A DNA stretch of 64,000 nt from an uncultured bacterium (GTDB lineage: Bacteria; Patescibacteriota; Microgenomatia; Levybacterales; UBA12049): NCBI GenBank assembly GCA_963826535.1, contig CAWGXL010000011.1, positions 728,581-792,580 of the forward strand. The letters run 5' to 3'. A program made the translations under genes and the position numbers. The notes under the pieces are model-generated. The model had not been told where the DNA came from, did no database searches, and saw only the letters and a list, made by a program, of their open reading frames with translations. Positions 3,725 through 56,381 of this stretch are shown here, one piece after another. Positions within the stretch are counted from its first letter, which is position 1; each line of letters opens with the position of its first letter.

Positions 3725-4051
3725 ATGGAGTGTGTTTTTTGCAAGATTATTGGTAAAGAAATTCCGGCGAAGCTTTTGTATGAGGATGAGGATGTGATTG
3801 TTTTTCCGGATAATAATCCGGTGAAGCCGGTGCATCTTTTGATTGTACCTAAAAAGCATGTTGAAGATTTTATCATGGTGGATGATCCTGCTCTTTTTTC
3901 AAAACTTTTATTAGTAGTACAGAAAATGGTCGCCCGGGAAGGTTTGAAGGACCGGGGATTTCGAGTTGTTTTAAATGGCGGAGGGGCGCAACTTGTTCTG
4001 CATCTGCATATTCATCTCATGGGGCCAATGGGTAAAACGGCATCATTATAG
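3725..4051 (+). CDS. HIT-family (histidine triad) nucleotide hydrolase
   Basis: C-terminal HLHIHLMG histidine triad. N-terminal CVFCKII motif. Start taken at the second Met (the track ORF starts at 3704). Confidence 0.75.
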   Translation: MECVFCKIIGKEIPAKLLYEDEDVIVFPDNNPVKPVHLLIVPKKHVEDFIMVDDPALFSKLLLVVQKMVAREGLKDRGFRVVLNGGGAQLVLHLHIHLMGPMGKTASL

Positions 4052-4069
4052 AAAAGGTTTCAAAGAATT

Positions 4070-6100
4070 TTATCTTCTGCGTCTAAAAAGGCGCTTAAAG
4101 AGTCCAAATTTTGTAGTATCTTTTGGGAGAGCGAAATAAAATTCATCCCAGGGATTACAAGTGCGGTCCGGATCAGCATTATGGGCGTCCAAATATGTCC
4201 CACCCTCATGACGTGTTAAGCGAAAAACGCTGGCAGCGATCTGTTTCATTGCTATTGAATACCATTCACCTAAAGGTTGGTCAATGTCTTTAAGCCTCTT
4301 GTGAAGTGCTACTTCCGGAGGGCAAAGCTCCAGTCCTATGTCTATTGCTCTTTGATAAAGTTGGCCGTATGTTGGTTTTCCTGTAAAATCAAGATCCTGA
4401 GTTTGTAGTCTTAGTATTTGCAATTGCTGAGGTTTTGGTGATGTAATTAAATCAGGACTATGTAGTATTTTTAGGCCATCTTTAGTGAGTTGTATACCTG
4501 CATGCTCAAATTCGTTTTCAAATTGTCTGACTGATTTACCACCGATCTCAAGAGGTTCTATTTGTTTTTTTCTTTCGGGAAATGAGGTGTAGATATATTC
4601 TAAATGTCTTAATTTCTGTGAAACCGGAATAATTTTGTCTCTATTGTCATAATTAACCAATTTGCCTACATAGGCTACAGTCTTATCATTGATTTCATCC
4701 GGATTGCGCGCAATTTGTTCTCTCCCGCATCCAAAGACAATCGGTATATCCTCATCGGGGTTTCTTGTTTTACGTAATTCCGCAATGCGCGGGTCGCTTT
4801 CGTCATTAAAACCAAACCCTTCAATAGGAGCATTGATTTCATAGAGAAAAGTAAGGTCGTCTTTGTTAAGTGACTGCGCGGGTTCTTCCTGCTCTTTTTT
4901 TGTTCTTCGCCTTGAAGGGTTTATTTTGTGATCAATAGCGGTAAGACGAAACATATTCTCTGATTTCTTTTTGAACCTTTTCCCATCAGGATGCTCATTT
5001 AGCTTCGCTTCCGCTACTTTGCCTATGTATGGATCGAGATTCTCGCCCTCAGCCACGCCGCGCATTTCATCAATTTTATTATCAGGATTTACGACCATAC
5101 ACAAGCGGGGAATAGTCGGTTCGCCAGACTTGTCCAAGGAGTAATAGATATGTAGATCGTTGGCAAAAAATCCTTCTCCGCCCTTAAGATATAGTTCGGC
5201 CATAGAAACTCCCCGCAGACACCAACCTGTGCCGTATTCGGAAATAGAATCAACAAGGGGTTGCGGATCAGATCCCCTTGGGAAAGGTCTCCATTTCCCC
5301 TCGGTAATTTTAAGTAATTCTTCCGGAATTGGTTTAAATTCTTCCAGGGCTAAAGCGTAAAGTTTGGCAAAATTCTTTTTTTCCAGAGAGTCCCGATATC
5401 TCAGTTTGGATTGCGAGTTGATTTCGTGTTTCTTGGTGAATTGAAGCTCGCGGCTTTGATCTTCGATCTTAGGAACTGTAGTGTATTGTGTTTCAATATC
5501 CTCGAGCAATATAGTCAATGCTTCGTGGTTAAGATCAGGAAAAGGAGCAATAGTTCCGCCGGTTCTTTCTGTAAAAGATTTTTTTTCTTTGTCAAACCTG
5601 CCCATATGCAGGATGCTTCGAAAAACGAAATACTTAATCCAGTCAGGGTATTTCTTTGCTTCGTTGGAAGTGAGAAAATTGACCCATTTGTCCAGGGATT
5701 TTTGTTGATCTTTGATGATAGTTTCCGTAAGTGTATTTCTAATGCTCTCCGGTAATTCAATATTTCCGCGTCCTTCATCTCGATGCCTGCGTTTTATAGA
5801 TTCAAAATGTGCATCAGGTACGTCTTGTTCCTTTATAACAACTTCCGAGTGGAGTTCTCTTTTCAACATCCTAAGATTTCTTTGCTTTCTGTCAAAATTA
5901 GGATGACCGTCAAGTACAGGAGGGTTTAGAATGTTATCCAGCCTGTCAAGATAATTTTGGATGCGGGAAGAATAATCATTTTGAGGAATTATTTCGCCTG
6001 TCAGTTGTTCCCGGCGTTTTGTTGCAGCTTCCACACCAGGGTCTCTATTGAGTTGAAATTTCGTTTGGAGAAAATCTGCTCCGGTATTTGCTTCACTCAT
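4070..6100 (-). CDS. hypothetical protein (676 aa)
   Basis: Long uninterrupted ORF with typical coding composition. No motif recognised. Confidence 0.45.
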   Translation of the reverse strand: MSEANTGADFLQTKFQLNRDPGVEAATKRREQLTGEIIPQNDYSSRIQNYLDRLDNILNPPVLDGHPNFDRKQRNLRMLKRELHSEVVIKEQDVPDAHFESIKRRHRDEGRGNIELPESIRNTLTETIIKDQQKSLDKWVNFLTSNEAKKYPDWIKYFVFRSILHMGRFDKEKKSFTERTGGTIAPFPDLNHEALTILLEDIETQYTTVPKIEDQSRELQFTKKHEINSQSKLRYRDSLEKKNFAKLYALALEEFKPIPEELLKITEGKWRPFPRGSDPQPLVDSISEYGTGWCLRGVSMAELYLKGGEGFFANDLHIYYSLDKSGEPTIPRLCMVVNPDNKIDEMRGVAEGENLDPYIGKVAEAKLNEHPDGKRFKKKSENMFRLTAIDHKINPSRRRTKKEQEEPAQSLNKDDLTFLYEINAPIEGFGFNDESDPRIAELRKTRNPDEDIPIVFGCGREQIARNPDEINDKTVAYVGKLVNYDNRDKIIPVSQKLRHLEYIYTSFPERKKQIEPLEIGGKSVRQFENEFEHAGIQLTKDGLKILHSPDLITSPKPQQLQILRLQTQDLDFTGKPTYGQLYQRAIDIGLELCPPEVALHKRLKDIDQPLGEWYSIAMKQIAASVFRLTRHEGGTYLDAHNADPDRTCNPWDEFYFALPKDTTKFGLFKRLFRRRR

Positions 6101-17166: not shown

Positions 17167-17454
17167 GTGTCAGCAAAAGTTAATATAAATATCTTGGTAA
17201 ACACATTTAAAGAAGGCGATATATATATCGCTTATTCACCCATGCTTGATCTCTCGACGTATGCCCCGACTTTTGAAAAAGCTCAAAAGCGATTTAGGGA
17301 GGCAGTGCAAATATTTTTTGAGGAACTGGACGAAAAAGGTACTACTGAGGAAGTGCTGACAAGTCTGGGATGGAGAAAAATAAAAGATGAATGGACTCCT
17401 CCGTTACCTATTCATAATGAGGTGAGTTCGTTTATGGTGCCTCTTGCAACCTAA
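17167..17454 (+). CDS. HicB-like antitoxin
   Basis: YIAYSPMLDLSTYAPTFEKAQKRFREAV resembles the HicB/UPF0150 core. Immediately followed by a HicA-like ORF. Confidence 0.55.
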   Translation: MSAKVNINILVNTFKEGDIYIAYSPMLDLSTYAPTFEKAQKRFREAVQIFFEELDEKGTTEEVLTSLGWRKIKDEWTPPLPIHNEVSSFMVPLAT

Positions 17455-17457
17455 ATT

Positions 17458-17688
17458 ATGCCTCAAGTTAGACCTATAAAAAGGAGAAAGTATGAAAAAT
17501 TTCTCAAGCTTGTTGGTTGCGAGTTGCAACGTACAAAAGGCGATCATCTTATCTATTCACGTCCTGGATTGAAAAGGCCTGTTGTTATTACTTCGGACTC
17601 TGAGGTACCTGTTTTTCATATTCGTACCAACCTAAGAACGCTTGGAATGACAGTTGAAGAGTATCTTAATATTATCGAGAAGATGTAA
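17458..17688 (+). CDS. HicA-like mRNA interferase toxin
   Basis: KGDHLIYSRPG motif (the KGSH-type box of HicA). 76 aa. Confidence 0.6.
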   Translation: MPQVRPIKRRKYEKFLKLVGCELQRTKGDHLIYSRPGLKRPVVITSDSEVPVFHIRTNLRTLGMTVEEYLNIIEKM

Positions 17689-36956: not shown

Positions 36957-37208
36957 ATGAATTATTCTATTTCAGCCAGTAAATTAAAGAGTAAGGTTGC
37001 AGATGTTCTTAATGATGTGCATTATAAAAAAAATATTGCCATTATAGAACGCTATGGTAAACCTATTGCGAAGATTATTCCGATGGATATGTCTCATAAA
37101 AATATTTCTCATGTAAAAAAAGCATTAAATGATTACTTTGGAGTATTACCTGATTTTCCTGAAGTAACGAAAAAACGAGCTTCACGGAAGAAATCAATAT
37201 CTTTGTGA
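36957..37208 (+). CDS. Phd/YefM-type antitoxin
   Basis: 83 aa. Overlaps the downstream PIN-domain gene by 4 nt (ATGA). Confidence 0.5.
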   Translation: MNYSISASKLKSKVADVLNDVHYKKNIAIIERYGKPIAKIIPMDMSHKNISHVKKALNDYFGVLPDFPEVTKKRASRKKSISL

Positions 37209-37591
37209 AATATCTTCTTGATACCAATATAATTATTAATCATATACGTGGTAAAGAACGTATTAGTTCAGAAATCATTGAGCAGGGAGCTGCAATAAGT
37301 ATTATTACATTAGGGGAATTATATTACGGGGGATATAAATCAAAAAATCCAACCAGTTCGCTTAGGATCATCGCTCAACTTTTAGAGACATTAGGCATAC
37401 AAGTAGAGACTCTTAATAGAAATATCGTGGAAGAATTTGGAGAAATAAAAGCAGATCTTGAAAGGTTAGGGACAAGAATTGAAGATTTCGATTTACTTAT
37501 TGCTGCAACTGCAAAAACACAAAATTTCATTCTGATTTCAAAAAATATAAAACATTTTCACAGGATCGAAGGAATTAAGCTCTATAGGTAA
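37205..37591 (+). CDS. vapC: VapC PIN-domain toxin
   Basis: MKYLLDTNIIINHI N-terminus with the acidic PIN residues. 128 aa. Confidence 0.7.
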   Translation: MKYLLDTNIIINHIRGKERISSEIIEQGAAISIITLGELYYGGYKSKNPTSSLRIIAQLLETLGIQVETLNRNIVEEFGEIKADLERLGTRIEDFDLLIAATAKTQNFILISKNIKHFHRIEGIKLYR

Positions 37592-41632: not shown

Positions 41633-43096
41633 ATGAACGTAGAGAGACAATCTTTGTATGTTAGTGATGGGGAACGACGAGCTGTGGGCGTTGGTTTTCA
41701 CAATGCTGCTGATGTTTTGTGGGCATCGGATCGTGCTGTACAGGAAGCTGTAAAAAAACACTATCAACAACGGGGAGGGCATATACCCCTTGATAATGTT
41801 GATAAGACTTTTATGTTAGTGCAAGAACATGACGATCCTACTACTTCACAATTCCATTATCTATCTGATATAACCGGCAGAAGAATTGAGCCTAAAACAA
41901 TAGAAGAAATTAAGCAAGAATCCAGAAAAACTTTGTCTCAAAAACCGCTTGTAGTTCCTTATATAAAGCTTCCTCTAACCGAGACATACTTAGAGCGTGA
42001 ACTTGGGGCAGATGTTTGGGGTTTACCAGGGACTGTGGTGTCAGTTTTAAAAAATAAAGCTGAATTTCATGAAAGGATACTGAGGGCTGAAATAGACGGA
42101 CTTCATGTCCCGGATTTTATAGTTACAGATGTAGATGATTTAACTATCAATTCAGAAGAATTTTACAGAACACATGTGAAAGATTTATACAAAAGATTCA
42201 AGATGGACGGGTATACTCATGGTCTAGTCTTGCGGCCGGCTGAGTCTGACGGTAACTTTGGTGCAGGTGTTGTGCGAGAGGAAAATGGACATGTTCTTTT
42301 TATGCCTGATGGCAAGATGGAAGGAGCATCCAGGCATCCAACATTTAATAGCGCATTAGCAAGAAGCCAAGAATATATGAGAAGTACAATGAATAGCGTA
42401 AAAGAAAAGAGGGTGGTTGTTAGTAGGTTGATTGATTTAGCTGATTCTCCGGGGATGTCTGTGGCTGTACTGGATGGTCAGGTAATATCGTTGGGCTGGA
42501 ATGGACAGATAATAAAAGATGGTACGGCATGTGTTGGGACAAGTACATATAGACCTAAAGATGAATATTTACAACAAATACAAGAGGAGAATGAAGAAAA
42601 AACAGCGGGAGCATTCTCGGTGCTATTGAGTCAACTGACAAAGGGGCAAGGGATAGACTTGCAGACGGTACGGGGGATTGCAAATATTGATATCATGATT
42701 CCGGGAGAGCGAGAAAGAGAACTTCAGAGAAAACGTGGTGGAGACCCGCATTTATATGTTGCTGAATCAAATCCACGTTATACCAATATGACTGATGGGG
42801 TTTTGACCGCGGTTGCAGCGCAAAGATTACCGCAAACTGTACGTTCAATGCGGGTAGTGACTGCTGCAGGAATAGTATCGGAAGATAAGTATGCTCTTCC
42901 GGCTGGTGTTGATCCAAAAGCAGTGCGTGACGAAATTTATAAAAGTGATCTTAAATTAAAAGAAGAAGGTACGAGAGTGATAGCACGTATGACCGTTGCC
43001 CCTATGGGTGTTATATTTCTTGGTAATACTGAACTTGCCAGGCGCGAGCTTACGAATGTAGTGCATAAGCTCGCTGGGAAAAAAAGTGTAATTTAA
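41633..43096 (+). CDS. ATP-grasp-fold ligase-like protein (paralog 1)
   Basis: NKAEFHERILRAEIDGLHVPDF (DK..K..L...G.P.P-like). Gly-rich loop RPAESDGNFGAGVV. C-terminal YVAESNPR (E-x-N-x-R). Confidence 0.5.
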   Translation: MNVERQSLYVSDGERRAVGVGFHNAADVLWASDRAVQEAVKKHYQQRGGHIPLDNVDKTFMLVQEHDDPTTSQFHYLSDITGRRIEPKTIEEIKQESRKTLSQKPLVVPYIKLPLTETYLERELGADVWGLPGTVVSVLKNKAEFHERILRAEIDGLHVPDFIVTDVDDLTINSEEFYRTHVKDLYKRFKMDGYTHGLVLRPAESDGNFGAGVVREENGHVLFMPDGKMEGASRHPTFNSALARSQEYMRSTMNSVKEKRVVVSRLIDLADSPGMSVAVLDGQVISLGWNGQIIKDGTACVGTSTYRPKDEYLQQIQEENEEKTAGAFSVLLSQLTKGQGIDLQTVRGIANIDIMIPGERERELQRKRGGDPHLYVAESNPRYTNMTDGVLTAVAAQRLPQTVRSMRVVTAAGIVSEDKYALPAGVDPKAVRDEIYKSDLKLKEEGTRVIARMTVAPMGVIFLGNTELARRELTNVVHKLAGKKSVI

Positions 43097-43261: not shown

Positions 43262-44719
43262 ATGAATAAAGAGAATGGAAACCAATCATTATTTGTTCCT
43301 ATAGGCGAACTGCAAGTTGGTGTTGGTTATCATAATGTTCATCAAGTTGTTGGAGCATCCGATTTTGTACAAAAAAAAATAAAAGAAAAGTATCAGATGC
43401 GTTGTGGACATGTGCCGCTTGATGGTTTCGAACGTACTCATGTTTTGGTAGGCGAACATACGGATGCAACTACTTCACAATTAGATTATCTCTCCGATAT
43501 TTTCGGTCGAAAAATTGCACCTAAGACAGTGGGGGAAATTAAACAGGAATCTAGTAAAGATGGTGGTCAGAAGCCATTGGTTGTTCCATATATTAGACTT
43601 CCTGAAGTAGATGTATCTATGCAGGAAAAACTCGGTGCGAAAGTGTGGGGACTGCCTGGAGGAATGGTGATTGCATTAAAAAATAAAGTAGAATTTCACA
43701 GGATGATTGAAAAAGCTCAAATAGATGATCTTCATGTGCCAGATTTTACTATTGCAAGAGTAGATGATTTGACTGCTAGTGCAGAAGAATTTCGATTGAG
43801 GCATGTAGAAGGTTTATACAAAAGATATGATATGAGTGATTATAACCGCGGACTTATGGTGCGAGCTGCCGAATCTGATGGCAACTATGGCGCAGCTATT
43901 GTTAAGGAGGTTAATGGAAATAAAATTCTTATGCCTGACGGAAAAATGGATAAATTTCAGAAACATGATACTTGGAAAGGGGCATTAGAAGCTTGTCAGG
44001 TATATATTAAGGAAGCGATGAATACGGCAAAAGAGGATAGGGTAGTTATTAGCAGGCTTATTGATCTTGCTGATTCTCCGGGTATGTCTGCTGCTATTTT
44101 AGACGGTCAGATGCTGTCTTTAGGATGGAATGGGCAATTATATAAAGATGGGACAGCATGTGAAGGTACAGGCACATATAAACCAAAAAATGAATATTTA
44201 AAACGTACACAAGTTTTGTATGAAGAAAAGGTAGCAGGGGCATTCGAAAAATTGTTGAAACAACTGGCAGATGAAAAAGGAATAGACTTCAGCGTAATAA
44301 GAGGATTTGTGAATATAGATATAATGATTCCAGGGCATAAGGAAAGAGAGCTTCAAAGAAGGAGGGATGGAGAAACATACTTTTATCTTGCCGAATCAAA
44401 TCCACGTATTACTCATTTTACTGATGCAGTTTTGACAGGGGTTGCGGCCCAGAGGCAAAGGCAAACTGTAAATTCTATGCGTGAAATAATAGCTAAGGAT
44501 TTACAAGCAGAAGACAGTTTTACACTACCCGAATATGTTGATCCTAGAAATGTTCGTGATATGGTTTATCAAAGAGACCTTGATTTAAGATATGGTGGTA
44601 CAAGAATAATTACACGTATGTTGGGAATCCACAATGTGGGTGTCATATTCATGGGTGATACGGCTCGGGGCAGACGAGAACTTACAAATATTGTTGATAA
44701 ACTAGCGGTGAAAAAGTGA
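43262..44719 (+). CDS. ATP-grasp-fold ligase-like protein (paralog 2)
   Basis: Collinear with the 41633 ORF along its full length. NKVEFHRMIEKAQIDDLHVPDF, VRAAESDGNYGAAIV, YLAESNPR. Confidence 0.5.
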   Translation: MNKENGNQSLFVPIGELQVGVGYHNVHQVVGASDFVQKKIKEKYQMRCGHVPLDGFERTHVLVGEHTDATTSQLDYLSDIFGRKIAPKTVGEIKQESSKDGGQKPLVVPYIRLPEVDVSMQEKLGAKVWGLPGGMVIALKNKVEFHRMIEKAQIDDLHVPDFTIARVDDLTASAEEFRLRHVEGLYKRYDMSDYNRGLMVRAAESDGNYGAAIVKEVNGNKILMPDGKMDKFQKHDTWKGALEACQVYIKEAMNTAKEDRVVISRLIDLADSPGMSAAILDGQMLSLGWNGQLYKDGTACEGTGTYKPKNEYLKRTQVLYEEKVAGAFEKLLKQLADEKGIDFSVIRGFVNIDIMIPGHKERELQRRRDGETYFYLAESNPRITHFTDAVLTGVAAQRQRQTVNSMREIIAKDLQAEDSFTLPEYVDPRNVRDMVYQRDLDLRYGGTRIITRMLGIHNVGVIFMGDTARGRRELTNIVDKLAVKK

Positions 44720-45802: not shown

Positions 45803-46218
45803 AATGTGATTTTTAAAATAGGGTATTGACAAGCAGGGGTTTTTTGATTAACAATATAATAAGTGAAAAGAACTAAAGTAAAAAAAGTTAAGAGTTTGAG
45901 GACTGTTAAGGGCAGTAAACAGTTTACAGAGAAACATAAGCATTTCGAACATTTAATTGTAATATTTGCAGGTGTGGTAGTAGCTTTCTTCCTGGTGCTT
46001 ACTAAATCTTCACAGTAAAATAAAATTTATACTTTGCTTCTTGGTGTATTATTTCCTTATTTATGCTAATATGACATTGATACAAGTTCCGCATTTGGCA
46101 CATTGCGGCGTCAGGTTCTGCGGTGCTCGACAGCGTACGCTTTAGTACGCTTTACTCCGCTCCTCGACCCTTCCTTGCACTGTACTCAAATGCGAAACTT
46201 GTATATATAAAAAGGTGT

Positions 46219-47584
46219 ATGGCGATTCAGACGGTTAATCCTACTACAGGCAAATTAATAAAACAATTCAAACCTACAACGGCTTCGGAAGTCGAAAGGC
46301 GTCTTTCTCGGGCGCAAAAGGCATTTCAGTCGTGGAGTAAGCTGACGGTAGCGGCGCGGATTAAATATGTTCAACGGCTTTCCGAGTATTTGGAAAAGGA
46401 AAAGCAGGTGTTGGGGAGATTGGTGACTTTGGAGATGGGACGGGTGTATGCGGATTCTGTGGCTGAGATTTCAAAGAGCGCTAGTGTATGTAAGTACTAT
46501 ATTCAAAACGGTGAGAAATTTTTGCAAGAGCAGCATGTGCCTACGGAGGCTGCAAAAAGTTATATCGAGTACGCGCCGCTTGGAATAATATTGGGCATTA
46601 TGCCATGGAATTTTCCTTTTTATCTGGTTTTTCGTCCGCTTATTCCGGCTCTGGTTGCGGGTAATGTCTTTGTGCTTAAGCATGCGTCGAATGTTCCTCA
46701 ATGTGCTCTGGCTATTGAGGAAATGTTTTCGGAAGACCGGGTTTCCGGCGGGAGTGTTTACTAATCTTTTTATTGAGGGCGGAAATGTCAGCCATGTGAT
46801 TGCTGATGACCGGATCGCAGCGGTAACTCTTACAGGAAGTGAGGCTGCGGGGGCTAAAGTCGCGGGGCTCGCGGGGGCGCATTTGAAAAAGACTGTTTTG
46901 GAGTTGGGCGGATCGGATGCATTTATAGTTTTGGAAGACGCAAATATTGAGGAGGCAGTTACACAATCTGTAAAAGGCAGACTGATGAATGCCGGGCAGG
47001 CTTGTAATTCACCTAAACGGATTATTTTGACGCATAAAATTGCAGATCGATTTAAAGATTTATTTGTGGCGAAGTCGCGAAAGCTTAAGGTAGGGGATCC
47101 GATGGATCCTGGGACAGATGTTTGTCCAATGGCGCGTGAGGATTTGATTGAGGTTTTGGATGAACAAGTGTCAGGTTCTATAAAGCGCGGGGCGAAGCTT
47201 TTGCAAGGAGGTAGAAGGATCAAGAGAGCAGGATTTTTTTATGAAGTAACAGTTGTAGATAATGTGAAAAAGGGTATGCCGCTATTCGATGAAGAGGTTT
47301 TCGGGCCGGTTGTTGTGTTTATTACAGTTAAATCAGACGCAGAGGCAATACAAGTGGCGAATGATACGCATTTGGGGTTGAGCGCGAGTGTTTGGACAGG
47401 TGATATTAAGCGGGCGCATCATTTTATAGATAATTTGCATGTGGGTAATGTGTTTGTAAATCAAGTTGTGCGGTCAGATCCAAGGCTTCCTTATGGTGGA
47501 GTTAAAAAGTCAGGTTATGGGAGGGAATTGGGAGAGCACGGGATACGGGAGTTTACGAATATAAAGACGGTTGTTATTAAGTGA
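46219..47584 (+). pseudogene. NAD(P)-dependent aldehyde dehydrogenase disrupted by a frameshift near 46731-46745
   Basis: Two overlapping ORFs, 46123-46764 and 46655-47584. The ALDH motifs continue in the +1 frame (FPAGVFTNLFIEGG, ELGGSDAFIV, catalytic-Cys region). An apparent single-base insertion lies at GAAGACCGGG. Confidence 0.6.
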
Positions 47585-47620: not shown

Positions 47621-47645
47621 ACCCTCACCCTGACCCTCTCCCTTA
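47621..47645 (+). terminator. GC hairpin CCCTCTCCC-TTAAA-GGGAGAGGG downstream of the ALDH gene
   Basis: Perfect 9-bp GC-rich stem. No clear U-tract, so the terminator call is tentative. Confidence 0.4.
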
Positions 47646-47673
47646 AAGGGAGAGGGAAGGTAAATGAAGAAAT

Positions 47674-48576
47674 ATGACATTTTTGGAAAAATACGAGCTT
47701 CTGAAAAAATCTATTCCTGTTCCGGCTGTGGCAAATGATGCGCAGTCGGTTGGTTGTGATTACTCGGATGGGATGATTGCTAGCAAAAACTGCTTCTTTT
47801 GTGAAGGAACTTTTCAGGAAGATTGCATTTATGCTTTTTATTCAGCTCATGCAAAAAGATTGGTAGATTGTCTTCAAACATCCCAATCGGAAAGATGTTA
47901 TGAATGTGTTAGTTGCTTGAAGTGTCATAGTTGTATTTATCTTATAGATTGCAATAATAATACAGACTGTCATTTTTCCGCTTTATTAAACTCCTGTAAC
48001 GATTGCTTCGGGTGTGTAGGTTTAACACATAAAAAATATTGCATTTTTAACAAACAGTATAATAAGGAAGAATACCTGAAAAAAGTTGAAGAGTTAAAAA
48101 AAGAAAAGCCCGAACAATTACTGGCTCAATTGCTTAAACTAAAACAGCAGATTCCGCATCCGGCAAGTCAGCAGTTCAATTGTGATAATTGTCCTTACGG
48201 TGATCATATCTGGGACTCCAAGAATTGTTATTGGTGTTTTAATAGTTTACTTAATGAAAACTCGGGATATACGTTTAATACAACCGGGCTCTTAAATTGC
48301 TGGGATATGCATTGAGGAGGAAAAACCAGCGGACCTAAAAGCGAGCGATGTTATGAGATGACTAATTCTCTTCTTAACTATGAGTGTGCATTTCTAAGCC
48401 ATAGCGAAAACTGTACGAAATCCTGCTATGGCGCATGGCTTACTAATTGTACAGACTGCTTTGGTTGTATTGGGTTGAAAAACAAAAAATACTGTATTTT
48501 AAATAATCAGCTTACAAAAGATCAATATGAAATAGCGGTAAGAGAGGTTAAAAAAGAACTTGGGTGGACCTCTTGA
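47674..48576 (+). pseudogene. Cys-rich paralog family member interrupted by an in-frame TGA at 48313-48315
   Basis: ORFs 47674-48315 and 48358-48576 are in the same frame and together are collinear with the full-length paralogs. The stop replaces the Phe position of CWDMFFSGG. Confidence 0.5.
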
Positions 48577-48580
48577 AATT

Positions 48581-49489
48581 ATGACCTTTCTTGAAAAATA
48601 TGAGTTTCTGAAGAAATCTGTTCCTGTTAAGGCTTTACGGAATATTGAACCTGAAGGATGTGAATATAGTGAATTTTTGGATTACTGTAAAAATTGCATT
48701 TACTGTTTCGAGTCAGCAAAGTTAATAGATAGTTTGTATACAGTACTTGGCATTTGGGGAACAAAACTTGTAGATTGTACTTCAGTAACAGAATCAGAGA
48801 AATCTTATTATTGTATTGATTCTAATAAATGCTACAACAGCACATATTTAATGGACTGCAATAATTGTACTGACTGCCATTTTTCAGCATTTTTAAACAA
48901 TTGTACAGATTGCTTCAGATGCGTCGCCATTACTCATAAAAAATATTGTATTTTCAACAAACAGTACACAAAACAAGAATATTTTAAAAAAATTGAAGAA
49001 TTAAAAAAAGAGAATCCTGAAAAGTTACTCAATAAAATGATTGATTTAAAAAAACAGATACCTCATCCGGCAAGCCAACAATTCAGCAGTGAGAATTGCC
49101 TGTACGGGAATTACATATATAATTCTAAAAACAGTTACTGGTGTTTTAATAGTTATTACATTGAAAATTCAGGCTATAATTTCATCAGCGGAAATGTTAA
49201 GAATTCTTGGGATTTATATTTTTCCGGAAGCTCTGACAAGTCTGTTGTGACTGAGCGCGGTTATGAATTATATGCTTCCGGCAGGACGATTTATAATTGC
49301 GCATTCTTATCTGACAGTATTTATTGCACTGATTCTTTTTATAGTGATAATCTTATAAATTGCTCCTACTGCTTTGGGTGTGTGGGACTAAAAGGTAAAA
49401 AATACTGCATCCTCAATAATCAACTCACAAAAGACCAATATGATAAAGCTGTGAAAGAGATCAGAAAAGAGCTTGGGTGGAAATATTAG
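48581..49489 (+). CDS. Cys-rich repeat protein, paralog family (MTFLEKYE N-terminus)
   Basis: About 9% Cys. Two internal modules of about 130 aa each end in C-x2-C-F-G-C-V-G-L-x2-KKYCI-x-N-x-Q-x-TK. The PHPASQQF motif is shared. No signal peptide. Confidence 0.55.
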   Translation: MTFLEKYEFLKKSVPVKALRNIEPEGCEYSEFLDYCKNCIYCFESAKLIDSLYTVLGIWGTKLVDCTSVTESEKSYYCIDSNKCYNSTYLMDCNNCTDCHFSAFLNNCTDCFRCVAITHKKYCIFNKQYTKQEYFKKIEELKKENPEKLLNKMIDLKKQIPHPASQQFSSENCLYGNYIYNSKNSYWCFNSYYIENSGYNFISGNVKNSWDLYFSGSSDKSVVTERGYELYASGRTIYNCAFLSDSIYCTDSFYSDNLINCSYCFGCVGLKGKKYCILNNQLTKDQYDKAVKEIRKELGWKY

Positions 49490-49524
49490 TTGTAGTAAAA
49501 ATATTTATTTGGTAGAATGTCCTC

Positions 49525-49800
49525 ATGTCAATATCATTTCCAATTACTATTAAAATTATTTATGAACCTGAAGCAGTTGATGCGCCGTATGTAGCTTATA
49601 TTCCTGAATTTGATATTTCCTCTTGTGGGAAAACAGAAGAAGAGGCAAAAAAACACGCAAGGGAAGTTCTTGAAATTACGCTTGAAGAAGTAGAAAAAAA
49701 ACATAAACTTGAAGAATTTCTCAAGCAAGCCGGAATTTCTATTAAAAATTCAGGCTCATTTCCTAAAATAAGCTTTGAACCTTTTATATTTCACTCTTAA
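49525..49800 (+). CDS. HicB-like antitoxin
   Basis: YVAYIPEFDISSCGKTEEEAKKHAREVLEITLEE matches the HicB core. Confidence 0.6.
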   Translation: MSISFPITIKIIYEPEAVDAPYVAYIPEFDISSCGKTEEEAKKHAREVLEITLEEVEKKHKLEEFLKQAGISIKNSGSFPKISFEPFIFHS

Positions 49801-50030
49801 TGCCCGCAATTAAACCGATTAATTACAGAAAACTTAGAAAAGTATTTGAAAAATTTGGCTGGAAATATGATCGGACAAAAGGTGACCATCTAATTTTTAT
49901 TAAAAAAGGCTATCTTAGGCCAGTAGTCATTCCCACATATAAAACAGTTCCGGTTTTTATTATCAAGAACAATTTGCGTACAGCAAATATAACGAATGAG
50001 GAATATTTTGAGATTTTAAAAAATTTATAA
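49800..50030 (+). CDS. HicA-like toxin
   Basis: KGDHLIFIKKG motif. 76 aa. Paralogous to the ORF at 17458. Confidence 0.6.
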   Translation: MPAIKPINYRKLRKVFEKFGWKYDRTKGDHLIFIKKGYLRPVVIPTYKTVPVFIIKNNLRTANITNEEYFEILKNL

Positions 50031-50037
50031 AATAATT

Positions 50038-50946
50038 ATGACCTTTCTTGAAAAATATGAACTGCTGAAAAAATCTGTTCCTGTTCCGGCGTTGGCACTT
50101 GGGCCTTTTACGGTTGAGACGGTGTACGCTAATTTTGTCTATAGAAGTAAAAATTGTTACTTTTGCTTTGACGGATTCAAGTTGGAAGACAGCATGTATA
50201 CGACGATGGGGGTTTGGGGGAATAAGCTTGTAGATTGTGAAGCAGTTACAGAATCAGAAAAATGTTATAAATGTATAGATAGTAATAAATGTCATAGTTG
50301 TACATACTTAGTAGAAAGTAATGAATGCAGCGATTCCCACTACTGCGCTTTTTTAAATTCATGCACTAATTGTTTCGGTTGCGTTGCTCTCACCCACAAG
50401 AAATATTGTATTTTTAACAAACAGTATACTAAAGTAGAATATTTTAAAAAGGTGGAAGTATTAAATAAGGAAAAACCGGAGAAAATACTTGAGCAAATGT
50501 TTGATCTAAAACAGAAGTTACCTCATCCTGCAAGTCAGCAATTCAATAGCGAAAATAGTCCATATGGCAACTATATTTATAATTCGAAAAACAGCTACTG
50601 GTGTTTTAATAGCTACTATTGTGAAAATTCCGGTTATAATTTTGCAGCTGTAGCAACTAAGAATTGTTGGGATGTGGTTTTTGCTGGTGGAGATCAAGCA
50701 TTAAAAAAAGTTTCTGAGCGATGTTATCAGCTTATGGACTCAATTAATTGTTATGATTGTGCGTATTTACAAAATAGTTCAGAGTCTACGAATTGTTATT
50801 ATGGCGAAATGCTTAGAAATTGTTCAGATTGTTTCGGTTGTGTGGCGTTAACCAATAAAAAATATTGCATCTTGAATATTCAACTCACAAAAAACCAATA
50901 CGAAAAAGCTATTAAAGATATCAAAAAAGAGTTAGGATGGAATTAG
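50038..50946 (+). CDS. Cys-rich repeat protein, paralog family
   Basis: N-terminus MTFLEKYELLKKSVPVPA. Same Cys framework. Confidence 0.55.
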   Translation: MTFLEKYELLKKSVPVPALALGPFTVETVYANFVYRSKNCYFCFDGFKLEDSMYTTMGVWGNKLVDCEAVTESEKCYKCIDSNKCHSCTYLVESNECSDSHYCAFLNSCTNCFGCVALTHKKYCIFNKQYTKVEYFKKVEVLNKEKPEKILEQMFDLKQKLPHPASQQFNSENSPYGNYIYNSKNSYWCFNSYYCENSGYNFAAVATKNCWDVVFAGGDQALKKVSERCYQLMDSINCYDCAYLQNSSESTNCYYGEMLRNCSDCFGCVALTNKKYCILNIQLTKNQYEKAIKDIKKELGWN

Positions 50947-50953
50947 TAGAATT

Positions 50954-51862
50954 ATGACCTTTCTTGAAAAATATGAACTTCTGAAGAAATCTGTTCCGGT
51001 TCCGGCTGTTTTTTCAACTAATTCGTTTGATAGTGAATTTGTTGATACAGTCGTTGACTGTAAGAATTGTTATTATTGTTTCGATACTTACTTTCTTGAA
51101 AATGCTATGTATACAAGTTTTGGAGCATATAATAAAATGCTTGTAGATTGTCATGGAATGGTTAATTCAGAAAAATGTTATGAAAGCTTCGATGGCACAA
51201 AATGCTATAATTCTACCTTCTTAATGGATAGCAATAGTAGTAATGACTGTCATTATTCATCCTATCTCACAACATGCAGCAATTGCTTCGGCTGTGTAGG
51301 TCTGACTCACAAAAAATATTGTATTTTTAATAAGCAATACACAAAGGAAGAATATATTAAGAGAGAAGCGGACTTAAAAAAAGAAGGACCTGAAAAGATG
51401 CTTAAGCAAATGTTTGAATTAAAACAAAAGATACCACATCCTGCAAGTCAGCAATTCAATAGCGAAAATTGTCCATATGGCAATTACATTTTTGATTCAA
51501 AGAATTGTTATTGGGGTTTTTTGGTAAATTATTCTGAAAATTCCGGATATTTATATAATAGTGGTACGATGAAAAATTGTTGGGATATGTTTTTTTCAGG
51601 GGGAAATTTTAACCAAAAATTTTATGCTGAGCGATGTTATGAACAGATGAATACCGGTTTTTGCTACAACTGCGCATTTCTTGCCAGCAGTCAAAACTGT
51701 TCAAATTGTTATTATGGTGAAATGCTTAGAAATTGCTCGGACTGCTTCGGTTGCGTGGGGTTATCAAATAAAAAATATTGTATATTAAATAACCAATTAA
51801 CTAAAGACCAATACGAAAAGGCTGTTAAAGAGATCAGAATAGAGCTTGGGTGGGGGTTTTAA
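50954..51862 (+). CDS. Cys-rich repeat protein, paralog family
   Basis: N-terminus MTFLEKYELLKKSVPVPAV. Same Cys framework. Confidence 0.55.
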   Translation: MTFLEKYELLKKSVPVPAVFSTNSFDSEFVDTVVDCKNCYYCFDTYFLENAMYTSFGAYNKMLVDCHGMVNSEKCYESFDGTKCYNSTFLMDSNSSNDCHYSSYLTTCSNCFGCVGLTHKKYCIFNKQYTKEEYIKREADLKKEGPEKMLKQMFELKQKIPHPASQQFNSENCPYGNYIFDSKNCYWGFLVNYSENSGYLYNSGTMKNCWDMFFSGGNFNQKFYAERCYEQMNTGFCYNCAFLASSQNCSNCYYGEMLRNCSDCFGCVGLSNKKYCILNNQLTKDQYEKAVKEIRIELGWGF

Positions 51863-51920
51863 GGATGTACATAGTTTACATGTTGACAAAATATACATAA
51901 ATATGTATATTTGAGCTATT

Positions 51921-52181
51921 ATGACACAGGTAATGAGTATTAAAGATACAAGAGATAAATTGGCAGAAGTGGTAAATCATGTAAGTGCTACAGGTGACGC
52001 TGTGGTGATTACTAAGTTTGGTAAACCCAAAGTCATGATTGTTCCCATATCGGATAAGAAGCAAAGTGTTTCATCTGCGTTAGACGAGAGTTTTGGAATA
52101 TGGAAGGATAGGCGCGATATAGGCGATACCGGCAAGTGGGTCAGAAACTTAAGAGATAAAATGAGTCGAAGACATGAGTAG
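51921..52181 (+). CDS. Phd/YefM-type antitoxin
   Basis: IKDTRDKLAEVVNHVSATGDAVVITKFGKPKVMIVPI is the canonical Phd/YefM N-terminus. Overlaps the PIN gene. Confidence 0.55.
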   Translation: MTQVMSIKDTRDKLAEVVNHVSATGDAVVITKFGKPKVMIVPISDKKQSVSSALDESFGIWKDRRDIGDTGKWVRNLRDKMSRRHE

Positions 52182-52557
52182 ATATTTAGCAGACACTACG
52201 GTACTTATAGATCATCTACGAAGCGATATACAGGCAAAACAGTTTTTAAAAAAACATGCTCCTTATTTATCTACGGTCACAGTAGCAGAACTGATACAAG
52301 GCACTAAAAACAAAAATGAGTTAAATGTTGTATTAAGAGTATGCAAAGCATTTACAGAATTGGAAATAACTAAAAAGATTTCTAATAAGGCTATAAACTT
52401 ATTAGTAGATTTTCATTTGTCTCATGGGTTACGCTTTTTGGATGCTATAATTGCATCGACTGCGATAGAAAACAATTTGATCTTGGTAACGAAGAATATG
52501 AAAGACTTCAGGTTTATAACAGGTCTTAAAATAATATCTCAAAAAGAGATTTTTTAG
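52174..52557 (+). CDS. vapC: VapC PIN-domain toxin
   Basis: MSRYLADTTVLIDHL N-terminus with the acidic PIN residues. Confidence 0.7.
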   Translation: MSRYLADTTVLIDHLRSDIQAKQFLKKHAPYLSTVTVAELIQGTKNKNELNVVLRVCKAFTELEITKKISNKAINLLVDFHLSHGLRFLDAIIASTAIENNLILVTKNMKDFRFITGLKIISQKEIF

Positions 52558-55790: not shown

Positions 55791-56381
55791 TTATTGAGGT
55801 TCCGGGGGGAGGAATTCTTCTCCGCCGCTGTCGTTTGAGGCGGGTTTTTGGGGATATTCGTGGGGTTTGAGCCAGTAGATATAGGGGCATCCTGTTGCTT
55901 TTCTTGCTTTGGAATCCCAGCCGGCGGTGCTGCATTTTTTCATTTTTTTGCCGCTAACAGTCGTGTAGAGGATTAGTTTGCTGCCACACTCTGGGCATTC
56001 TTCGTCAAGCTGTTCCGTCGTGCCGTTTATCCACTCGACATAATCACATCCTACAGTTTTCTTGGTTACTTTGTCCCAACTTCCGGTTGAGCATTTTTTC
56101 ATTTTCTTTCCAAAGCGGGTGACCGCGAGGACTAATTTTGAACCGCATTTGGGACACTTTTCATCTAACTCTTGCGGTTCAACTTCAAGCCACTTTACGT
56201 AGTCACATCCAATAGTTTTTCGCGTTTCCATATCCCAGGATCCAGTGGAGCAGCGTTGTAATTTTCTTCCTGTTTTTGTGAGTGTTATTTCTCCGAGCGG
56301 GCTGCCGCATTTGGGACAGATATCCTTTGATGGGTTCTGGACTGTGTCTTTTGGGATTGTTTTATCGTCGGCTTTTGCCAT
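55791..56381 (-). CDS. stand-alone protein with three topoisomerase-I-type C4 zinc ribbons
   Basis: Three repeats of CPxCGSxL...GKKxxKCSTGSWD...GCDYVxW. Confidence 0.55.
   Translation of the reverse strand: MAKADDKTIPKDTVQNPSKDICPKCGSPLGEITLTKTGRKLQRCSTGSWDMETRKTIGCDYVKWLEVEPQELDEKCPKCGSKLVLAVTRFGKKMKKCSTGSWDKVTKKTVGCDYVEWINGTTEQLDEECPECGSKLILYTTVSGKKMKKCSTAGWDSKARKATGCPYIYWLKPHEYPQKPASNDSGGEEFLPPEPQ

Follow-up and report, generated by a model that had tools for sequence, protein, structure and literature searches.

The 64,000-nucleotide window analysed here (the whole stretch of DNA, from contig CAWGXL010000011.1 of an uncultured Levybacterales bacterium) carries at 47674-51862 four tightly spaced paralogous genes for Cys-rich proteins, p1-p4, all on the + strand and recovered by open reading frame (ORF) listing, pattern search and tblastn. 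On sequence comparison they are short forms belonging to an unnamed and very large family of proteins from the CPR (candidate phyla radiation, Patescibacteria), built from modules that structure prediction renders as narrow β-solenoids, and in related genomes the family recurs beside a coupling-protein-like ATPase, a small zinc-finger protein and a regulator. We tentatively propose that the proteins are scaffolds with variable surfaces that work with the ATPase and the zinc-finger partner as a repertoire of adaptors or cargo, the toxin-antitoxin (TA) cassettes lying among the genes not being components of the system. The window would then hold one secondary array of an expanded family, together with incidental TA cassettes. 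The array consists of the following features:

p1, 47674-48576, + strand: 300 codons, in two same-frame ORFs (47674-48315 and 48358-48576); 57% identity to p4.
In-frame TGA of p1, 48313-48315, + strand: aligned to TCC, GCT and TCA of p2-p4, a Ser/Ala column.
p2, 48581-49489, + strand: 302 aa, 58% identity to p4; the listed ORF begins at an upstream TTG (48560), the conserved ATG lies at 48581.
p3, 50038-50946, + strand: 302 aa, 61% identity to p4.
p4 (P0001), 50954-51862, + strand: 302 aa, the reference for searches and modelling; 100% match on an 894,453-bp contig.

An initial annotation, made from the letters of the window, had described tandem same-strand Cys-rich paralogs of which one was disrupted, and such an array is indeed present. 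Its count of five genes does not hold: tblastn finds four, the supposed fifth (48358-48576) being the same-frame C-terminal remainder of p1. Cys makes up 7.3-9.7% of the paralogs, close to the ~9% first given.

Scans of the paralogs with Pfam and NCBIfam matched no model (at E≤1 Pfam gave one irrelevant match, E 0.28), PADLOC models gave nothing at E≤1 against three paralogs, and the best result of a PDB sequence-profile search was maltose O-acetyltransferase with an E value of 0.37. Named database members are all hypothetical or uncharacterised, in agreement with the initial annotation, which did not recognise the family. Homologues are nevertheless plentiful, with 1,125 close ones in a word-indexed search, 3,446 representatives at 50% identity (E≤1e-3) and, for one long form, over 7,000 related proteins. 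A scan of species-representative genomes returned 80 loci, 80/80 on Patescibacteria-type contigs and almost all labelled Patescibacteria, from Peregrini-, Gracili-, Parcu-, 'Sacchari-' and Microgenomates lineages, and by this sampling of sequences the family is essentially restricted to the Patescibacteria. The contigs most like the window (L002, L004 and L033; CAZJRC01...) are labelled Gammaproteobacteria, and others, L010 and L062 among them, carry the labels Lysobacterales or Bdellovibrionales; the gene content of these five is CPR-like, and they are probably mis-binned or mislabelled contigs of metagenome-assembled genomes.

Two to seven same-strand copies occur in 50 of 81 related loci. 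Most copies elsewhere are long forms of 540-600 aa, in which the 300-aa core is flanked at both ends by the treble-clef zinc fingers zf_Tbcl and zf_Tbcl_2, and these long forms are 45-59% identical across CPR classes. The zf_Tbcl domain (PF13451/PF23477) is absent from the four window proteins. A long-form model reached a predicted template modelling score (pTM) of 0.83, which suggests the zinc fingers are packed in a fixed arrangement on the core. The 894,453-bp contig carrying p4 encodes at least 28 family products, some 25 kb of a reduced genome, of which 24 are full length and 53-80% mutually identical and four are truncated, so that the expansion in a reduced genome noted initially is borne out. 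At L002 a 487-aa ORF (3965-5428) upstream of a HicBA pair matches the family profile over positions 275-300 alone, at its C-terminus, and may be a fusion or a remnant of a family gene. The literature yielded no description of the family, of zf_Tbcl/PF13451 or Cys-ladder repeats in CPR, or of a link to an ATPase resembling type IV coupling proteins (T4CPs), and the Cell 2023 transposon sequencing (Tn-seq) paper mentions neither cysteine, zinc nor VirD4.

Alignments and an AlphaFold2 model of p4 (mean predicted local distance difference test (pLDDT) score 86.1, pTM 0.75), in which two stacks of short strands are each closed by helices, divide the protein as follows:

N-terminal helix/peptide MTFLEKYELLKKSVPVPAV, residues 1-19, 50954-51010, + strand: helix predicted at 3-13, pLDDT 97.
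Solenoid 1, residues ~36-117, 51059-51304, + strand: Cys/Ser at every third position.
Cap 1 with helical hairpin (helices 131-142 and 146-159), 51275-51430, + strand: (near-)invariant columns and modelled secondary structure.
PHPASQQF, residues 161-168, 51434-51457, + strand: junction of the two modules, from the alignment of the genome's paralogs.
Solenoid 2, cap 2 and C-terminal helix, 51461-51859, + strand: from alignments, the AlphaFold2 model and half-to-half comparison.

With 37% identity between the halves of p4 (E 3e-24), each protein is an internal duplication of one module, as first proposed, and each half ends in C-x2-C-F-G-C-V-G-L-x2-KKYCI-x-N-x-Q-x-TK-x-Y followed by helices. In p4 the first cap reads C108-x2-C111-F-G-C114...Y-C123-I-F-N-K-Q-Y-T-K-E-E-Y and the second C261-x2-C264-F-G-C267...Y-C276-I-L-N-N-Q-L-T-K. 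This module-end motif and the conservation of PHPASQQF had both been remarked on at the outset and are both seen in the alignments, P161 being invariant and H162, P163, A164 and Q167 conserved within the genome's paralogs. The repeat is not the 11-residue x-C-x2-C-x6 unit originally suggested. In a 64-sequence alignment, Cys or Ser stands at every third position across residues 66-114 and 229-267, and the autocorrelation of Cys/Ser peaks at 3, 12 and 15, giving a period of 3 with stacking at 12. Raw Cys correlations are dominated by overall Cys richness and were corrected before being read; among 531 non-identical family cores the corrected presence of Cys correlates at +0.13 for a separation of 12 and -0.16 for a separation of 6, which fits a 12-residue coil with stacked ladders, and the search by Cys covariation for disulfide pairs or metal quartets left, after correction, the stacking signal at separation 12 alone. 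These correlations speak against i/i+6 disulfides of the antifreeze type, and likewise against a single Cys4 site in each coil. The module is thus modelled as a narrow β-solenoid of ~12-residue coils with an inward Cys/Ser ladder, closed by the CxxCFGC...YCI.N.Q cap and helices. Such 12-residue coils, with Cys or Ser laddered at each third position, make the fold unusual, and it may serve as a scaffold; in the phage relatives it is pared down to almost pure (CSDCSx)n.

Variation among the genome's copies follows this architecture. Entropy is 0.52 in the ladder phase versus 1.2 in the two outward phases, and residues 20-65, 200-227 and 243-258 are hypervariable, the N-terminal 19 residues, caps and helices being nearly constant. 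Residues 1-19 are the least variable segment of all (entropy 0.47 versus 1.7 for residues 20-65); F3, L10 and P15 are at least 93% conserved across the 531 cores, and the N-terminal peptide MTFLEKYELLKKS[IV]PVPA is conserved across the whole family. The paralogs lack a hydrophobic segment (maximum KD19 1.39) and export signals, as expected from the initial statement that they have neither signal peptide nor transmembrane helix.

The same Cys pattern bears on the idea, raised in part by the initial annotation (probable Zn or Fe-S binding), that these are cytoplasmic metal-binding proteins (Zn, Fe-S or metallothionein-like) whose CxxCxxC ladder coordinates metal for storage, redox chemistry or sensing. 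A Cys content of 7-10% with CxxCxxC spacing would suit such a function, as would the eight Cys (108, 111, 114, 123, 261, 264, 267 and 276) that vary little or not at all within the Microgenomates subfamily, the zinc fingers of the partner domains, and the phage relatives described below, with 15-26% Cys in pure (CSDCSx)n repeats. Ladder Cys and Ser are however interchangeable, Cys alone often scoring 0.3-0.6 and Cys plus Ser at least 0.8, and the anti-correlation at i/i+6 comes without a quartet pattern. Among the 531 cores only C107, C110, C113, C266 and C275 reach 90% conservation, C122 standing at 0.58 and C260/C263 at ~0.55. Metal binding alone would also leave 28 surface-diversified copies unexplained, and cysteine ladders with free thiols are already a known stabilising feature of β-helices (PMC9410043). 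We therefore regard a primarily metal-binding function as unlikely.

Clustering of all ORFs neighbouring family genes in the 81 related loci brought out three recurrent partners, all outside the window and absent from the initial annotation. A VirD4/TrwB/TraG-like ATPase is present in 17-19 of the 81 loci, spread across CPR classes, often directly flanking the array and sometimes on both sides of it; it matches TrwB_AAD_bind, TraG-D_C, T4SS-DNA_transf, VirD4-like models and TrwB (1e9r) in Pfam, NCBIfam and PDB. The second partner is a small zf_Tbcl protein of 92-105 aa (17 loci) that typically lies beside short forms, in effect a split long form, and the third a TrmB-like helix-turn-helix regulator (16-17 loci), usually divergent and upstream. 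Within two genes of a family gene the counts are 17 loci for the T4CP-like ATPase, 17 for the zf_Tbcl protein and 16 for the TrmB-like regulator, the next commonest neighbour family reaching five. Assuming ~2 T4CP genes per genome, a figure taken from PMC12102498, ~0.7 loci with a T4CP within two genes would be expected by chance, compared with the 17 observed. At L001, L003 and L017 a small zinc-finger protein and a T4CP are encoded beside a family locus. In several Parcubacteria loci (L050, L052, L054 and L077) genes for T4CP-like ATPases, paralogous to each other, stand at either end of a long-form array, most of them encoding proteins of ~490-530 aa that lack a membrane segment. The contig of the window itself encodes one such zinc-finger partner, P0395, of 92 aa and 79% identical to a Levybacteria protein; its conservation greatly exceeds that of the solenoid paralogs, and by sequence it matches best, within the PDB, to LIM domains, a type of protein-protein adaptor.

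Judging by the neighbouring genes and fused domains seen elsewhere in the CPR, we infer that the family proteins work with a double treble-clef LIM-like module, fused at both ends in the long forms and, where short forms occur, separate as a highly conserved 92-aa protein, here P0395, and also with a VirD4/TrwB-like ATPase, under a TrmB-like regulator. The N-terminal helix, the caps and the PHPASQQ junction would dock onto the zinc-finger adaptor and the ATPase, and the variable faces of the solenoids would bind diverse targets. On this reading the arrays would offer the 'orphan' coupling ATPases of episymbionts a set of exchangeable adaptors or cargo, and host cells may be where the proteins are delivered or on which they act. 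Linkage to a coupling protein, array diversification paralleling that of VirB2 arrays and the absence of Sec signals speak for export.

Several observations weigh against this proposal. At the C-terminus of p4 the AlphaFold2 model has a helix over residues 284-298 (pLDDT 97-98) packed on the module, and no unstructured, positively charged C-terminal type IV translocation signal is seen there. Compact Cys-rich solenoids would be awkward substrates for a channel that depends on unfolding. An N-terminal membrane segment is found in just 2-3 of 20 neighbouring ATPases, which weakens a role in secretion. None of the genes for the T4CP-like ATPase, the small zf_Tbcl protein or the TrmB-like regulator lies in the 64-kb window, so that for the four window genes the link to these partners comes from homology and from the presence of P0395 somewhere on their contig. 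According to PMC12102498, moreover, the T4CP homologue of the one genetically tractable relative was non-essential. Finally, the modules in which phage homologues are found are those of replication and recombination, pointing to an intracellular role.

Of the library families, phrog_15341, made up of phage proteins of unknown function, was the only one to match significantly (E 6.4e-8, with p3). Five IMG/VR contigs (L082-L086) encode single-module relatives of 92-251 aa with 15-26% Cys, mostly acidic, in which a short helix is followed by nearly pure (CSDCSx/CFG)n and then the same cap (e.g. L083, 4962-5717); their genes sit among those for DnaB, RecE/RecT, exonuclease and RNA ligase, not among structural genes. 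An alternative is that the family acts inside the cell on nucleic acids or replication, as a DNA-mimic rod or a modulator of an FtsK/HerA/TrwB-type DNA-translocating ATPase rather than as exported cargo, the ATPase serving DNA uptake, DNA processing or conflict with mobile elements. The gene surroundings of the phage proteins and their net charge of -3 to -15 favour this, as do the acidic long-form cores (median net charge -7) and the solubility of most neighbouring ATPases; TrwB-family ATPases are, moreover, DNA-dependent. The short forms of this genome are however near neutral (median net charge -1, isoelectric point (pI) ~6.4), the zinc-finger partner resembles LIM protein-protein modules and not known DNA binders, and no nuclease, relaxase or recombinase recurs beside the arrays. 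Taken together, we consider such a role rather unlikely, and retain the variable-surface scaffold as our working proposal.

Its most far-reaching extension would be that Cys-ladder arrays and the LIM-like adaptor are the missing clients of 'orphan' VirD4-like ATPases throughout the phylum, deployed against hosts, a claim we regard as doubtful. Among 2,918 Patescibacteria genomes 5,713 VirD4-like T4CPs were counted, merely 148 of them near virB4, and the authors stated that a different, exapted role of these T4CPs cannot be ruled out (PMC12102498). Linkage of the family to the ATPase supplies a concrete candidate for what the Patescibacteria VirD4-like ATPases act on, a role left open in that study. 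CPR bacteria, which live on other cells and whose genomes are tiny, account for a sizeable part of bacterial diversity. If the extended claim were true, it would describe a phylum-wide module not previously reported, of which the lineage of the window has expanded the client family to ~3% of its genome.

The copies of the array are old. Proteins encoded by p1-p3 are 57-61% identical to p4 by tblastn, nucleotide identity among copies is 60-72%, and synonymous sites between copies are saturated, the proportion of synonymous differences (pS) being 0.69-0.82. The rate of nonsynonymous substitution (dN) is 0.27-0.33 and its ratio to the synonymous rate (dN/dS), where computable, 0.11-0.17. The four paralogs are old duplicates kept by purifying selection, and the recent duplication suggested in the initial annotation is rejected, given saturated synonymous sites and a nucleotide identity of just 60-72%. 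Its description of the genes as fast-diverging applies to surface segments only; the scaffold, and the genes as a whole, are under purifying selection.

Near-identical 5' ends had also been taken as a sign of gene conversion. The 44-mer start on which this was based is exact in p4, has 2 mismatches in p2 and p3 and 7 in p1, so that three starts alone match it within 3 mismatches. A modest excess of similarity is nonetheless present at the 5' end: the first 57 nt differ at 6-9 positions within the genome versus 14-22 from homologues of other genomes, and synonymous-codon identity is 38/48 at the N-terminus versus 267/479 elsewhere (Fisher P 0.002). Local homogenisation or a constraint at the mRNA level is a plausible source of this small effect in the sequence comparison.

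The p4 query spans residues 1-300 of p1 in tblastn, p1 is otherwise intact downstream of its in-frame TGA, with no second lesion in tblastn or the alignment, and its 213-aa N-terminal product is present in the protein database as P0109. Selenocysteine insertion or other recoding of the TGA was considered and rejected: TGA is also the normal stop of p1, at 48574-48576, and the internal codon aligns with Ser/Ala, not Cys. We therefore read p1 as a very recent pseudogene, the TGA being a nonsense mutation, and not as a recoded gene. This lesion, the four truncated products among the 28 of the contig and a split neighbouring aldehyde dehydrogenase gene could be read as signs that the array is decaying, functionless repeat DNA, made up of pseudogenes or a selfish duplicating element. 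Three copies are however intact, dN/dS is low at saturated dS, the invariant motifs persist in every copy and throughout the phylum, and p1 has no second lesion past its stop, making functionless decay hardly credible.

Intergenic gaps within the array are 4-58 nt, and a promoter/terminator scan placed no terminator-like site inside the block. A perfect 9-bp hairpin at 47634-47656, CCCTCTCCC-TTAAA-GGGAGAGGG, occupies the 89-nt gap between the dehydrogenase gene and p1; it is unique in the window and, being without a T-run after it, was not called a terminator by the scan. Just upstream of the array, the aldehyde dehydrogenase gene falls into two ORFs that overlap but differ in frame, one at 46123-46764 and the other, which matches Pfam Aldedh positions 169-461, at 46655-47584; the whole, 46123-47584, is probably a frameshifted pseudogene or a sequencing error. 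An Rfam scan of the window gave no match.

Two TA pairs are associated with the array, the HicB-like/HicA pair between p2 and p3 and the Phd/PIN pair after p4:

HicB-like antitoxin candidate, 49525-49800, + strand: 91 aa; UPF0150 E 0.0099 and HicB_lk_antitox E 0.12, both weak and below threshold; abuts hicA.
HicA toxin, 49800-50030, + strand: 76 aa; PF07927 at E 2.3e-10, scoring 40.9 bits (cut-off 27).
Phd/YefM-type antitoxin, 51921-52181, + strand: 86 aa; PF02604, 31.5 bits against a cut-off of 29.8.
PIN-domain (VapC-type) toxin, 52174-52557, + strand: 127 aa; PF01850, 48.8 bits against a cut-off of 23.6, E 1.3e-12; 8-nt overlap with phd.

These pairs had been named correctly as HicBA and Phd/VapC, with HicA, Phd and PIN above their Pfam cut-offs and HicB weak. 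The further suggestion that the paralogs and the interleaved TA modules jointly form a defence or conflict system draws on the presence of two pairs in or beside a 4.9-kb array and on the hypervariable surfaces of the paralogs. At L002, moreover, HicB-like and HicA proteins 81% and 78% identical to those of the window are likewise encoded directly upstream of a family gene, a HicA gene (L021) and a PIN gene (L044) lie near family genes elsewhere, and a rough estimate for the placement of TA pairs at the array gives P ~0.04. Against it, two pairs of the same types lie in the window away from the array (HicB-like/HicA at 17167-17688 and Phd/PIN at 36957-37591), a TA gene lies near the family in only 3 of the 81 loci, those just named, the remaining 78 having none, and TA genes are not among the recurrent neighbours. 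PADLOC gave no match, the Phd/PIN pair has its own strong promoter-like site (51883-51911, 11/12) just upstream of phd, and the family is broadly conserved across CPR classes (45-59% for long forms), unlike sporadic defence islands. A joint TA-based defence system is on balance improbable, and HicBA and Phd/PIN look like incidental, ordinary mobile cassettes in a dispensable, expanding array. Type II TA pairs thereby number four within the 64 kb of the window, in a genome that is reduced.

Elsewhere in the window, two adjacent genes at 41633-43096 and 43262-44719 encode proteins of ~485 aa that are 58% identical, a tandem duplicate with no Pfam match and no homologue in the 81 related loci. 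At 55791-56381 on the - strand lies a gene for a 196-aa protein of three repeats, each a CPxCG zinc ribbon followed by KCSTGSWD...GCDY[VI].W; it gives weak matches to topoisomerase-type C4 fingers and is unrelated to the Cys-ladder family.

Compared with known systems, what is new is the family itself, the chemistry of its ladder and the genes around it; the fold class is of a known kind, and so is a variable gene family that has expanded within a symbiont's reduced genome. IMG/VR examples of the phrog_15341 proteins share the (CxxCxx)n ladder and the CFGC...Y.ICN.Q.TKEEY cap; the phage proteins are single-module with near-pure CSD/CFG repeats, whereas the window proteins are duplicated. The Tenebrio molitor antifreeze protein (PDB 1ezg) resembles the module in fold type alone, with a 12-residue coil and a small residue at every third position. 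In contrast to it, the window proteins show no Thr-x-Thr ice-binding face in the alignments and no signal peptide, the i/i+6 disulfide pair of the antifreeze protein is replaced by an anti-correlation and many Ser in the ladder, and the module, which is duplicated, carries helices and a cap motif of its own; no relationship in sequence can be detected. Foldseek searches of PDB and BFVD agreed with the modelled fold but returned generic β-helix matches alone, with template modelling scores (TM-scores) of 0.1-0.2; CsgA, the β-solenoids 8c50 and 3ult and the left-handed β-helix (LbH) acyltransferases GlmU/LpxD all fall within this range. The window proteins differ from curli and LbH proteins in ladder chemistry and in lacking a secretion signal and any Hexapep or curlin match in Pfam, the Hexapep profile being a [LIV]-G-x2-[STAV]-x repeat. 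The HicBA and Phd/VapC pairs of the window are ordinary members of their own families, neighbours of the Cys-rich family and outside it.

The nearest parallel in organisation is provided by the tandem VirB2 pilin arrays of Patescibacteria, which comprise 2-11 strongly diverged same-strand paralogs, are abundant in Microgenomatia and linked to genes related to type IV secretion, and have been read as a means of host versatility (PMC12102498). The Cys-ladder genes likewise form arrays in CPR genomes, with diverged paralogs on one strand and a link to genes of this kind. VirB2 pilins are however small membrane or Sec-dependent proteins, whereas the Cys-ladder proteins are soluble solenoids of 300-600 aa, and the partner of the Cys-ladder family is a coupling-protein-like ATPase rather than virB4.

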